Below, piece by piece: positions 3,860 through 64,000 of a DNA stretch of 64,000 nucleotides. Source of the DNA: Escherichia phage T4. Position 1 is the first letter of the stretch, and each line of letters opens with the position of its first letter. The position numbers and the translations under genes were made by a program. The notes below the pieces were generated by a model, which did not search any database, was not told the DNA's origin, and saw only the letters and a list, made by a program, of their open reading frames with translations. The stretch lies in sequence record OL964735.1, one strand, 5' to 3'.

Positions 3860-4061
3860 TTTTCACCTTTTTATTGATATGTCTTTTTCTATAGACAACT
3901 TTTTCTCGAGTTTCAAATTTATTCTTAGCAGTCATAGCTCGAGCCCATAATACAGCCACTTCTTTTGCCTGTAAGTTTAATTCACGAGCAATTTCAATGA
4001 ATGACTTTCCAGACTCATGAAGAGTAAACACCACAACCTCAGTTCTCATAATCAATCTCAT
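3846..4061 (-). CDS. 24.3: Hypothetical protein with HTH-like segment (24.3 position)
   Basis: 71-aa ORF; start overlaps upstream gene; possible helix-turn-helix GKSFIEIARELNLQAKEV. Confidence 0.5.
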   Translation of the reverse strand: MRLIMRTEVVVFTLHESGKSFIEIARELNLQAKEVAVLWARAMTAKNKFETREKVVYRKRHINKKVKNGTV

Positions 4062-54087: not shown

Positions 54088-54744
54088 ATGGCAGCACCTA
54101 GAATATCATTTTCACCCTCTGATATTCTATTTGGTGTTCTAGATCGCTTGTTCAAAGATAACGCTACCGGGAAGGTTCTTGCTTCCCGGGTAGCTGTCGT
54201 AATTCTTTTGTTTATAATGGCGATTGTTTGGTATAGGGGAGATAGTTTCTTTGAGTACTATAAGCAATCAAAGTATGAAACATACAGTGAAAATATTGAA
54301 AAGGAAAGAACTGCACGCTTTGAATCTGTCGCCCTGGAACAACTCCAGATAGTTCATATATCATCTGAGGCAGACTTTAGTGCGGTGTATTCTTTCCGCC
54401 CTAAAAACTTAAACTATTTTGTTGATATTATAGCATACGAAGGAAAATTACCTTCAACAATAAGTGAAAAATCACTTGGAGGATATCCTGTTGATAAAAC
54501 TATGGATGAATATACAGTTCATTTAAATGGACGTCATTATTATTCCAACTCAAAATTTGCTTTTTTACCAACTAAAAAGCCTACTCCCGAAATAAACTAC
54601 ATGTACAGTTGTCCATATTTTAATTTGGATAATATCTATGCTGGAACGATAACCATGTACTGGTATAGAAATGATCATATAAGTAATGACCGCCTTGAAT
54701 CAATATGTGCTCAGGCGGCCAGAATATTAGGAAGGGCTAAATAA
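54088..54744 (+). CDS. t: Holin T
   Basis: 218-aa ORF (T4 holin is 218 aa); single N-terminal TM helix (VAVVILLFIMAIVWY) and large periplasmic domain. Confidence 0.9.
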   Translation: MAAPRISFSPSDILFGVLDRLFKDNATGKVLASRVAVVILLFIMAIVWYRGDSFFEYYKQSKYETYSENIEKERTARFESVALEQLQIVHISSEADFSAVYSFRPKNLNYFVDIIAYEGKLPSTISEKSLGGYPVDKTMDEYTVHLNGRHYYSNSKFAFLPTKKPTPEINYMYSCPYFNLDNIYAGTITMYWYRNDHISNDRLESICAQAARILGRAK

Positions 54745-60807: not shown

Positions 60808-60855
60808 CAGTTGATAGTTGTATAGTACCACGGTCCTTGTGGTATGTAAACTGTT
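60808..60855 (-). promoter_or_regulatory. T4 early-type promoter downstream of denB
   Basis: GTTTAC and TACTATAC elements on the minus strand (gatagttgtatagtaccac cassette). Confidence 0.45.
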
Positions 60856-60867
60856 TTGTGAAATTTT

Positions 60868-61425
60868 TTAAATGGAAAGATACCATCCGTTGTAGTTGCT
60901 TTTTCTTACAACTTTACGAAGGTCTTCTCTGTCACCGATGAACTTCGGAGTGTACTGGATGACACCTGGATGAATTTCTTTAGTGTTGAATATAATTATA
61001 CAGTCAGCGACTTGATGATTTAGAATGGGCCCTAGATTTATTCCAGAACCATATGGATACTCTCCGCTGCATCCCGTTGTTACCGAAATCCAACGTGAGT
61101 CAGTTTGATGTGTCTTAACTTCTACACGAAGCCCGCAGTATTTTGGATGAGCCAATACATCCCATGCATATGTGTACGGATCATCGACATCCTCTTGGCC
61201 TTTATTGACATATCCACTCAACCAATCTGCCACAAAAAACTCTGCGTACACAGCGATACGGCATCTTTCGATAACTTCTGCCTTATCTTGATTTGGGTTT
61301 TGTTTTAAAGAGTATCTTGCAGTATCAGCAATTTTGACCTTCATTTCACAGGTCAAGTCACTGTTCGATAGGGTAAATGTCGGAATCTGAAATAGTCTCT
61401 GTAACCCAGGATTCGTTTTCTGCAT
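60868..61425 (-). CDS. denB: Endonuclease IV
   Basis: 185-aa ORF (T4 DenB is 185 aa); position between the ndd cluster and rII. Confidence 0.7.
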   Translation of the reverse strand: MQKTNPGLQRLFQIPTFTLSNSDLTCEMKVKIADTARYSLKQNPNQDKAEVIERCRIAVYAEFFVADWLSGYVNKGQEDVDDPYTYAWDVLAHPKYCGLRVEVKTHQTDSRWISVTTGCSGEYPYGSGINLGPILNHQVADCIIIFNTKEIHPGVIQYTPKFIGDREDLRKVVRKSNYNGWYLSI

Positions 61426-61490
61426 TTAAACTTTCCTTTATGTCGGAATCACCGATATTCATATAAATCATAATTTCTCTTAAAACAAAA

Positions 61491-61502
61491 GGGCCGAAGC
61501 CC
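61491..61502 (-). terminator. Hairpin between the 64-aa ORF and denB
   Basis: gggc-cgaa-gccc stem-loop followed by a T-run. Confidence 0.45.
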
Positions 61503-61508
61503 TTTATT

Positions 61509-61703
61509 TTACTTGAATTGTGCAATTCTTTTCTCTAGACATTCAGCATAAGATTTCATTGAGATGAACTGCGAAAGTAGCAGTTCTTGCTCAACTGCGC
61601 TAACTGTTAGAAACTTTGCGCTTTCTAAAAATTTGCTCAGTGCATTAATTTTGAGCATTAATTGATCGTATTCTTCTTTTACTCGTGCTTGATAACCTAA
61701 CAT
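61509..61703 (-). CDS. Hypothetical small protein immediately downstream of rII
   Basis: 64-aa ORF with strong RBS (TAAGGAAAATT-ATG); predicted helical. Confidence 0.5.
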   Translation of the reverse strand: MLGYQARVKEEYDQLMLKINALSKFLESAKFLTVSAVEQELLLSQFISMKSYAECLEKRIAQFK

Positions 61704-61717
61704 AATTTTCCTTAGTT

Positions 61718-61733
61718 AAGGGCCGAAGCCCTT
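61718..61733 (-). terminator. Hairpin overlapping the rII ORF stop codon
   Basis: aagggc-cgaa-gccctt stem-loop containing the stop codon. Confidence 0.4.
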
Positions 61734-63990
61734 ATTTAAATTGTTCAGTAACGTCTTCAACTACTTCATATTGGCAGGTACGCATTTTAGCATCGTTGTA
61801 ATCAATCGGAATTGATACTACATCGCGAGGATGAACTTTAACTTTTACAACTCGGCTGGTTGAACTACCAAAGTGACGAATATAAGATTTAGAACACACA
61901 TGCAAACCACGAGAACAAGTTTGTGTATCATCGTCATTCACACGAGTACGTGGCATTTTAACTACTTTACCCGGACTGTTATCAAAGGTGTTTGAGTGAC
62001 AGTCAAAGTAATTGCTGCGAACTACTTTCCAAGCATAGAAGTAACCATCTTCTGTAATTTCAATATCGTTTGCTACCAAGAAATCAAAGAGTCGAGATAC
62101 CGCTTTTTGGCTTGGGTTTTCCAACAGATTTTCCAAGAACGGAAAATAAAATTCAAAGTTTTCGCCTTTTTCCATCGAGTCAAGAATACGATCAACCAAA
62201 CCAGACCGCAATTCAATATTTTGATAGAACAAGCTTCCACCTTCAATTCGAACATCGCCGGAAATATATTTTTCAACAGCACGACGAACATTAATTTTTT
62301 GTGCCGCTTCTTCCAACTTATCCGCTACAAGCAGATTAAGAATTTCCTGGAAGTTTGAATGAGTATTAGGAGTTGCGTTATAAGTTACGCCATCAACAGT
62401 AATTGAAATGAATTTTTTAGATGCATTCCAAATAATGTCAGATTTAGCAACTGGAGCAATAACTGCATCGCTATTAACTTTAACTGTAATATCACCGCTA
62501 ATAGTAACTTTAGGACGAGGAGCTTTACTTTTAACTACCTTTGGAATATAACTTTTTACTAAAGCTTCAATTTCTGACAAATAATGAATGTTAACTTCAT
62601 CACTTTCAAACATCGCCATAATATCAGGAAGCAAATCAATCTGCGATTCTACTTCTGGATTAATAAACAGAAGACGTTCGTTATGATGAATATTCAAAGT
62701 GTTATTAAATTCACTATCATCTAACGCACGTGCTAATCCACGGACAATATTAACACGATTTTTAATATTATCAATAACGATATTAATTTTTGTTGTATTA
62801 ATACCAAACAGACGATAACTTGATGCAACGGCTGAAGTTTCATGACTTTGCTTAATGCGCTTCAGTCGAGGGTCAAGATTTACTTCATACACAACTCCCG
62901 CGTTGCATAACTTACTGTCAGGTTCAAACATGCTCTGCATCTTTTTATATGACAGATTTTTAGTCGTGAATTTGACTGAATTACTAATCATATAATCTCG
63001 AGCAGAATACCCCATCTTCATCAATTCACGATATGTGTGACGAGGAGATGTAGATTCTTTAAATCGTTTTACATCTTCATTAAATGCTTTCTCACTGAGT
63101 TCTTTAACTCGTTCAATAATATTTTTACGAGTGCGATCATCCAGTGAAAGAGCCTCGCGAGATGGAGCAATATCAAGTGAACCCATTGGAAACTTAATGT
63201 AATTCACTTCATTGCGAATGCTTAGCCAGTTACGGTCTCTAATAACACCATCGATAGGATAAACAATACCACCGTAGATAGCATATAATCCACCACGATC
63301 AGGCCAGTATCTTTCTGGATTTACACCGTAATAGTCATCAAAATCCGGAAAATAATCAATTTCGCGGTCAAGACCATTAATGATAGCCAAATCTTTGAAC
63401 GGTCGCATGATATAAGAAACTTCATAAGCAAAGTTTCTAAAGTCTTTTTCTTCAACTGGAACTACGATTTCAATACCAGTTTTATCATCTGGACCCATTT
63501 CTTTTACGAATGTAGGTTTAATCTGTGGACCATCACCATCCATGTAAGCTACATAACCACGAATTTCACCTTTATGATACGAAGTAATACTAAACGTATC
63601 AGTATAACTAAACGGAGATTTAGAACCTAAACCAAATCCGCCAATAAAGTCATTAGATTCAGCTTTAGATGAACTGAAGTATGAATTATACAACCCAGGA
63701 GAATTATCATCACCTTGAATATCAAAATCACTCATACCCGGACCAAAATCTCGACAAACAAATCGTGGGTCTAAACGTCCAGGAACTTGTATGATAAATT
63801 TTTCAGGATTTCCATTAAGTGCATGAGCATCAATCATGTTAGTAATCAATTCACGGACTACTGCGCGAATCTTGTTTGTATACAAATCAGATGACAGAAT
63901 TTTAAATACTTTAGGAGATGCTGTGATGCTAAATGCTTTTGATTTAGAACCATTACCAAGAATTGTTTCTTTTTCAGTGGTGATAATCAT
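61732..63990 (-). CDS. rIIA: rII protein: rIIA-like N-terminal GHKL ATPase region in a single 752-aa ORF; probable rIIA-rIIB in-frame fusion
   Basis: 752-aa ORF with GAGGAAATT RBS; GHKL motifs N-box [10 protein letters not shown]1 DFGPG, G2 GGFGLGSKS; lies where T4 has rIIB then rIIA upstream of denB; no separate rIIB-sized ORF. Confidence 0.6.
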
Positions 63991-64000
63991 AATTTCCTCA

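Follow-up and report, generated by a model that had tools for sequence, protein, structure and literature searches.

An in-frame rIIA-rIIB deletion fusion between short direct repeats in a laboratory phage T4 genome, probably the classical r1589 allele

The rII genes and their classical fusion

In wild-type T4 the rII locus comprises two genes, coding for proteins of 725 aa (rIIA) and 312 aa (rIIB) and separated by an 11-nt spacer that contains the ribosome-binding site of rIIB, as found by translating the wild-type locus. In classical T4 genetics, a fusion of the two genes lacks A function and keeps B function, and a frameshift or a nonsense mutation placed in the A part of such a fusion abolishes B function. 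It is to this property that r1589 owed its use in the experiments on the triplet code and on nonsense suppression. The allele was reportedly used by Crick et al. in 1961 (Crick, Barnett, Brenner and Watts-Tobin) and by Benzer and Champe in 1962, and its endpoints are said to be given by Pribnow et al. in 1981 (J Mol Biol 149:337) and by Shinedling et al. in 1987 (J Mol Biol 195:471).

More recently, Maffei et al. 2021 (PLoS Biol, PMC8594841, S5 Fig) described a culture-collection T4 in which the ORFs of rIIA and rIIB are fused. According to the legend of that figure, the position and size of the fusion are 'indistinguishable' from the r1589 sketch of Benzer and Champe, and the variant formed no plaques on a rexAB-expressing host. 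The fusion described here affects a well-known gene pair, the locus that phage genetics has studied best, and as a laboratory mutation it is of a classical and biologically ordinary type; on the evidence of that legend, one closely resembling it had already been flagged. The protein itself is also already deposited: the exact 752-aa sequence is found at NCBI as UJD20213.1 ('rIIA lysis inhibitor [Escherichia phage T4]'), encoded on a 167,548-bp contig.

A single reading frame across the rII locus

The window, i.e. the whole stretch of 64,000 nucleotides that was analysed (sequence record OL964735.1), corresponds to T4 coordinates 106069..2199 and is approximately 99.99% identical, over 64 kb, to the wild-type assembly OZ035787. 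Seven differences separate the two, namely the rII deletion, two 100-bp deletions, one 3-bp indel and three SNPs. As judged from its sequence, the DNA is that of phage T4 itself, of a laboratory lineage, and not of a relative. A previous sequence-only reading of the window had stated that every other gene matches T4, which is not quite true of cd.3 and arn.2, each with an exact 100-bp deletion; the 64-aa ORF that it had noticed between the rII ORF and denB is T4 denB.1, the normal gene between rIIB and denB. The features of the rII region are the following, all on the minus strand.

60868..61425, minus strand: denB, endonuclease IV, 185 aa, intact; it anchors the T4 gene order
61509..61703, minus strand: denB.1, 64 aa (Pfam PF21825, E=4e-19), of equal size in AF158101 and unchanged
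61717..61734, minus strand: UUCG-loop hairpin TAAGGGCTTCGGCCCTTA, overlapping the stop codon; native 3' end of rIIB
61732..63990, minus strand: fused rIIA-rIIB ORF, 752 codons plus stop, predicted product of 85.6 kDa
61732..62508, minus strand: rIIB-derived part, rIIB codons 55-312 plus stop, fusion residues 495-752
62508..62517, minus strand: deletion junction within a 10-bp repeat, CGTCCTAAAG in rIIA and CGCCCTAAAG in rIIB
62509..63990, minus strand: rIIA-derived part, codons 1-494, DNA 100% identical to wild-type T4
63562..63864, minus strand: GHKL/Bergerat ATPase-like region of rIIA, residues 43-143 (HATPase_c_3)
63616-63642, minus strand: motif GGFGLGSKS, residues 117-125, single occurrence
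63736-63750, minus strand: motif DFGPG, residues 81-85, single occurrence
63826-63852, minus strand: motif ELITNMIDA, residues 47-55, single occurrence
63996..63999, minus strand: rIIA Shine-Dalgarno sequence GAGG, 6 nt 5' of the ATG at 63990

The ORF listing of the 64-kb window contains the 752-codon frame as an uninterrupted one with an ATG start. When this stretch (35.5% GC) was shuffled 500 times, the longest stop-free run had a mean of 73 codons and a maximum of at most 131, so that a run of 752 codons is not due to chance. The start region reads TGAGGAAATT-ATG, with TGAGGAAATT at window 63991-64000.

By blastn against OZ035787, the 5' part of rIIA is matched by window 64000..62508 at 100% identity, and window 62517..61400 corresponds to the 3' part of rIIB followed by denB.1 and is one base apart from it, this base being the T/C that separates the two copies of the repeat. 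The two alignments overlap by 10 bases and flank a single gap of 869 bp. The deleted stretch consists of rIIA codons 495-725 (231 codons) and the rIIA stop codon, the 11-nt spacer between the two genes, the rIIB ATG and rIIB codons 1-54; in T4 AF158101 coordinates it is 168748-168903 plus 1-713, or an equivalent within the 7-bp repeat. At the protein level, fusion residues 1-494 are those of wild-type rIIA and the 258-aa tail is rIIB 55-312, with zero other substitutions.

These results bear out the sequence-only reading, which had proposed an in-frame rIIA-rIIB deletion fusion on the basis of an ORF with its own ribosome-binding site and ATG, GHKL/Bergerat motifs in its N-terminus and the lengths of the two T4 proteins. 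The ORF and its start signals are present, all three motifs were found once each, and the lengths that it gave are correct. The proposal had placed rIIA in the N-terminal two-thirds (residues 1-494 are identical to it, and the PHROG RIIA profile agrees), followed by an rIIB tail of about 260 aa that lacks about the first 50 residues of rIIB (258 aa, with 54 missing), with the junction at residues 450-520 (494/495) and a single DNA gap of 0.8-0.9 kb (one gap, with flanks otherwise identical).

PHROG profiles split the protein at the same place as the direct comparison, which confirms the chimera independently. Fusion residues 1-503 match positions 1-498 of the 725 positions of the RIIA profile phrog_612 (E=9e-193), whereas wild-type rIIA covers positions 1-724, and a full-length collinear RIIA match fails for the fusion; residues 498-752 match the RIIB profile phrog_609 (E=1.5e-157), i.e. 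the conserved rIIB core is kept. A match to Pfam PF26926 (Phage_T4_rIIB) is also on record for the fusion product. The 'RIIB' profile phrog_609 spans 1055 positions and matches the rIIA N-terminus too. Within the rIIA part, residues 43-143 are hit by Pfam HATPase_c_3 at 22.2 bits (E=1.6e-4), slightly less than the 25-bit cut-off, and wild-type rIIA scores the same as the fusion. At the other side of the junction, residues 7-50 of wild-type rIIB give near-threshold helix-turn-helix matches (HTH_7, 23.6 bits vs a cut-off of 23.8; HTH_28, HTH_29 and Sigma70_r4 also match); in the same family comparison no helix-turn-helix match was found in the fusion, and wild-type rIIB alone has them.

The junction is found inside a 9/10 direct repeat with an exact 7-bp microhomology, CCTAAAG, at window 62508-62514. 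The wild-type endpoints read ...GCTCCT-CGTCCTAAAG-CTGCT... in rIIA and ...GCTAAA-CGCCCTAAAG-TTACT... in rIIB; in the window the sequence is ...GCTCCT-CGTCCTAAAG-TTACT... (junction-spanning sequence, 5'-AAAGCTCCTCGTCCTAAAGTTACTATTAGC-3'), which locates the crossover inside CCTAAAG. By codons, the junction is ...GCT CCT CGT CCT AAA / GTT ACT ATT..., between residues 494 and 495. The repeat codes for Arg-Pro-Lys in both genes and in the same phase (fusion residues 492-494), so that the deletion is in frame. rIIA and rIIB share about 220 pairs of direct repeats that are 7 bp or longer, and 135 of these pairs are in frame. Thus, a microhomology-mediated in-frame fusion is not unique in principle, and the microhomology informs on the mechanism and not on which allele is present.

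With respect to the mechanism, the 869 bp may have been lost through slipped mispairing or illegitimate recombination between the CGTCCTAAAG and CGCCCTAAAG repeats; a short-direct-repeat pattern has been described for spontaneous T4 rII deletions. The ribosome-binding site of rIIB, its ATG and its helix-turn-helix-like N-terminus (codons 1-54) all lie inside the deletion, any promoter in the last 695 bp of rIIA is also lost, and the rIIA Shine-Dalgarno sequence and ATG are the only translation start signals left for the rIIB moiety. The latter would now be made only through translation of the rIIA part, and one 85.6-kDa protein expressed from the rIIA start would take the place of the 82.8- and 35.5-kDa proteins. 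The predicted protein would keep the GHKL-like N-terminal region of rIIA along with the conserved rIIB core, and would be devoid of the C-terminal 231 residues of rIIA and of the helix-turn-helix-like N-terminus of rIIB. Going by classical genetics, the phage would be rIIA-defective with residual rIIB function, and the predicted phenotype is that of r-type rapid-lysis plaques and exclusion by lambda RexAB.

Occurrence and provenance of the allele

Window 61400-64000 was compared by megablast with 50,697 phage records. The matches of wild-type T4 and its relatives are split in two and span about 3,470 bp of their genomes, and those of two 'Mutant Escherichia phage T4' records are unbroken. A 300-bp probe spanning the junction is contiguous in two of the 498 matching records, T4_7t1 (OL964745, 159,752 bp) and T4_583L (MZ375356, 151,790 bp), and the two-gene rII layout is kept in the other 496. 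The junction of T4_7t1 and T4_583L is identical to that of the window (100% over the probe), and both records end at T4 coordinate 2199, as the window does. Their engineered deletions differ from those of the window, and their fused ORFs, annotated as fragments for this reason, are broken by 2-bp deletions (e.g. at window 62816-62817), whereas the ORF is intact in the window. The absence of the 2-bp deletions from the window indicates that it shows the ancestral, intact fusion, and an rII deletion common to three differently edited clones must be older than their divergence.

T4_583L appears by name in Yuan et al. 2022 (NAR), a CRISPR genome-reduction (CiPGr) study in which the designed edits were exact 100-bp or whole-gene deletions; the cassette type called 'cassette-100', one of two, takes exactly 100 bp out of a gene by means of 50-bp homology arms, and the methods describe T4 only as 'model strain'. 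Two scars in the window fit this 'cassette-100' design.

Window 27338/27339 (T4 133370-133469): engineered-type 100-bp deletion in cd.3, exact, without microhomology
Window 55892/55893 (T4 162026-162125): engineered-type 100-bp deletion in arn.2, exact, without microhomology

Neither of these deletions was found in any record of the phage collection searched: arn.2 is wild-type in T4_7t1 and T4_583L, and cd.3 is wild-type in T4_7t1. Furthermore, the accession UJD20213.1 belongs to the same batch as the T4_7t1 proteins UJD20476-UJD20485. By taking into account the 100-bp scars, the shared record end and the accession batch, the window is very probably a sibling CiPGr clone. We argue that the rII deletion is older than the CiPGr experiment and was inherited from the 'wild-type' T4 stock of the study.

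A few other changes were observed in the window. The holin gene t has a private missense change, I69N (window 54293), absent from all of 495 records, siblings included, and a silent change at window 54114 is likewise in none of the 495. An Ala-to-Pro change is found in hoc (window 5047), and one AGT unit of an AGTAGT repeat is lost between denB and ndd.6. Gene 24.3 contains a 33-bp XhoI fragment that is absent from AF158101 and present in all modern T4 sequences; the corresponding XhoI-flanked 'insertion' (window 3911-3943) was considered as a possible engineered element and rejected, since all modern T4 records have the 33 bp.

The exact 752-aa protein is also encoded on 14 Logan contigs, the carriers including ERR1717092, SRR22215996, SRR11284005, SRR23190647 and ERR9613154. 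Five of the Logan contigs were retrieved, and over 2.9-3.2 kb their DNA and that of the window are 100% identical. An identical allele in five ERR/SRR assemblies appears to circulate beyond this record set, and it looks like that of a circulating laboratory stock. Judging by their differing accession series, the carrier runs may come from unrelated submitters.

Origin of the deletion and its relation to r1589

The reading as a whole, i.e. a T4 genome with an 869-bp in-frame deletion between short direct repeats, probably the classical r1589 fusion, is put forward with high confidence. On the narrower point of the identity of the allele, we consider it probable that it is the classical Benzer r1589 fusion. 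The locus shows a single deletion spanning the cistron divide, an ORF that stays in frame between the ATG of rIIA and the stop codon of rIIB, and a T4 background, as expected for an allele of the r1589 type. The likeness to r1589, already pointed out in the sequence-only reading, is plausible. A full-text literature search did not retrieve base-level r1589 endpoints, the sole relevant source being the figure legend of Maffei et al. (PMC8594841). When an annotated r1589 feature was sought in small T4 rII GenBank records, D16359 was found to have CDS features only, and a literature search on DSM 4505, a widely used T4 deposit that figures in many papers, gave nothing tying the allele to it.

The rival that survives best is a spontaneous in-frame rIIA-rIIB deletion of a laboratory stock that would be a different allele from r1589, with equal mechanism and consequences. 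Similar fusions could be yielded by the 135 in-frame repeat pairs, and the missing r1589 endpoints leave room for it. However, what is lost, approximately one third of A at its end and one sixth of B at its beginning, agrees with the classical picture of r1589, in which the end of A and the dispensable beginning of B are missing. A fusion of A and B in frame is also what workers in the 1960s deliberately kept and distributed, and the fusion of Maffei et al. (PMC8594841) is, in the words of its legend, not to be told from the r1589 sketch by position or size. With these considerations, a different allele is judged unlikely, albeit to be reckoned with.

Much less probable is a de novo origin during CRISPR-Cas9 genome reduction, by which the phage would have escaped Cas9 via mini-homologies at an rII cut, with subsequent spread through the lineages of that laboratory. 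The only GenBank genomes with the junction do stem from that study, the junction contains a 7-bp microhomology, and escape of T4 from Cas9 by minihomology recombination is described in PMC8262927. However, the edits designed in the study remove exactly 100 bp or a whole gene, unlike a deletion of 869 bp with its ends inside two genes, clones with different engineered deletions have this junction in common, the identical allele is found in Logan assemblies from several ERR and SRR series, and an rII fusion was independently found in a culture-collection T4 (figure legend in PMC8594841). We thus regard this origin as very improbable.

A natural T4-like phage with a single-gene rII locus, the alternative that had been allowed for in the sequence-only reading, has a negligible probability. 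The ORF itself would agree with it, and the 1055-position profile phrog_609, by matching the rIIA N-terminus as well, hints that long fused rII proteins may occur. Such a naturally different organization is, however, refuted by the T4 flanks and by the 496 of 498 related records with two genes; the 64 kb are also nearly identical to the wild-type assembly, what is missing is precisely the wild-type stretch that two repeats enclose, and the window has engineered 100-bp deletions besides. Finally, a collapse of the repeats in assembly, or another sequencing artefact, could be thought of for a junction within a short repeat, but in an assembly built from reads a repeat of 7-10 bp cannot make 869 bp of unique sequence disappear, and the same junction, assembled independently in at least seven datasets (the window, the two GenBank clones and five of the 14 Logan contigs), excludes it for practical purposes.

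The practical value of the finding is that of a strain-identity warning for an allele that is unannotated in several public 'T4' datasets. It is the unremarked starting genotype of the genome-reduction study, so that work done with that stock was done on an rII mutant. On balance, and by a modest degree, we favour the view that the 'wild type' T4 of CiPGr and of the other carrier projects is r1589 or a descendant of it, rII-defective and RexAB-sensitive. If so, some published phenotypes of 'wild-type T4' would really be those of an rII mutant, in particular those concerning lysis timing, lysis inhibition, prophage and abortive-infection sensitivity and gene-essentiality maps. A modern genome record also preserves a fusion that is probably the one behind the triplet code work, and the N-terminal segment of rIIB that is dispensable in classical genetics coincides with the helix-turn-helix-like motif.

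In comparison with wild-type T4 rIIA and rIIB, all retained residues, the upstream start signals and the downstream hairpin of the fusion are identical, whereas the fusion lacks rIIA 495-725 and rIIB 1-54 along with the translation signals between the two genes, all of which the wild type has. The variant of Maffei et al. 2021 (PMC8594841) carries, as far as its legend describes it, an rIIA-rIIB deletion that likewise leaves a single ORF, is RexAB-sensitive and was attributed to r1589; its sequence is absent from the phage collection searched, and we infer that its junction is identical. The comparison with r1589, made at the level of the sketch and not of single bases, revealed no difference from the fusion, and the proportions fit the classical sketch, as judged by Maffei et al. 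in the legend (PMC8594841) for their variant. As in the fusion described here, r1589 has one in-frame deletion that runs from the last part of rIIA across the cistron divide into the beginning of rIIB, with the rIIB part continuing rIIA.

The rII region of the sibling clones and of the window

The two sibling clones with the same rII junction, T4_7t1 (OL964745) and T4_583L (MZ375356), both obtained by the CRISPR genome-reduction method CiPGr, carry several 2-bp deletions within the fused rII reading frame when aligned to window 61732-63990. One of them, at window 62816-62817, is common to both clones, while the sites found only in T4_583L include 63552-63553, 63021-63032, 62041-62042 and 61967-61968 (window coordinates). 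The rII annotation of these clones is fragmentary because the 2-bp deletions interrupt the reading frame. Similar 2-bp deletions were also observed in the clones' genes adjoining the fused frame.

The segment of rIIB that the rII deletion removes from the window was taken from L003, a sequence with wild-type rIIB.

L003 3200-3361: wild-type rIIB residues 1-54, deleted from the window

In classical work the beginning of the B cistron has been regarded as 'dispensable'. The segment gave consistent near-threshold matches to helix-turn-helix profiles (HTH_7, 23.6 bits with a cut-off of 23.8; HTH_28; HTH_29; Sigma70_r4) and, thus, the 'dispensable' start coincides with a helix-turn-helix-like module. 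The PHROG profile phrog_609 ('RIIB lysis inhibitor'), of 1055 positions, is matched by window 61732-63990 and by both wild-type proteins, rIIA at positions 19-310 (E=1e-60) and rIIB at positions 751-1049. To judge from a profile of this length being matched by both, fused or merged proteins of full length, rIIA+rIIB-like, seem to be among the members of the family; these may be fusions that occur naturally or may be artefacts of annotation.

denB.1 and its flanking hairpins

Next to the fused frame lie a small gene and two hairpins:

61509-61703, minus strand: denB.1, 64 aa, matching Pfam PF21825 (E=4e-19)
61717-61734: hairpin 3' of the fused rII frame, UUCG tetraloop
61488-61505: hairpin 3' of denB.1, UUCG tetraloop

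The family matched by DenB.1, PF21825, is crAss001_48-related and is named 'Sequestin' in the contig annotation; DenB.1 is a conserved small protein common to T4 and crAss-like phages. The two hairpins are nearly identical (GGGCTTCGGCCC, with the same tetraloop), and a T-run on the coding strand follows the one after denB.1 only, not the one after the fused frame.

Small indels and point changes

60809-60811: loss of AGT, intergenic between denB and ndd.6
3911-3943: 33-bp segment bounded by XhoI sites, gene 24.3
54088-54744, plus strand: holin gene t, with SNPs at 54114 and 54293
5047, minus strand: hoc SNP, C-to-G

At the first site an AGTAGT tandem is short by one AGT unit with respect to AF158101, OZ035787 and T4_7t1. 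The one Logan contig extending this far (L010, SRR22215996), which carries the same fusion allele, has the state of the window and, therefore, the loss may mark the rII-fusion stock, or the site may simply be a slippage hotspot. The gene 24.3 segment was rejected as a feature peculiar to this phage, since every modern T4 genome record has it; missing from the reference AF158101, it is a small XhoI fragment overlooked in the original reference sequence.

The two substitutions in gene t are private to the window, one silent (codon 9) and one missense (I69N), the latter directly past the holin's transmembrane segment; at both sites each of the 495 records that match, sibling clones among them, has the wild-type base. 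They could alter the timing of lysis or its inhibition; alternatively, they could be Cas9-escape mutations. The hoc change, relative to wild-type T4 OZ035787, replaces Ala with Pro in Hoc (LSEGG[A>P]ETAEA).

The 100-bp deletions in cd.3 and arn.2

27338/27339 junction: cd.3 deletion of exactly 100 bp (AF158101 133370-133469 missing)
55892/55893 junction: arn.2 deletion of exactly 100 bp (AF158101 162026-162125 missing)

The cd.3 deletion shifts the frame, its ends lack microhomology, and it was found in no record of the phage collection. That in arn.2 is of the same character and likewise unique to the window, T4_7t1 and T4_583L being wild type at the site. The cd.3 deletion fits CiPGr's 'cassette-100' design for genome reduction, in which exactly 100 bp of a gene are deleted (Yuan et al. 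2022).
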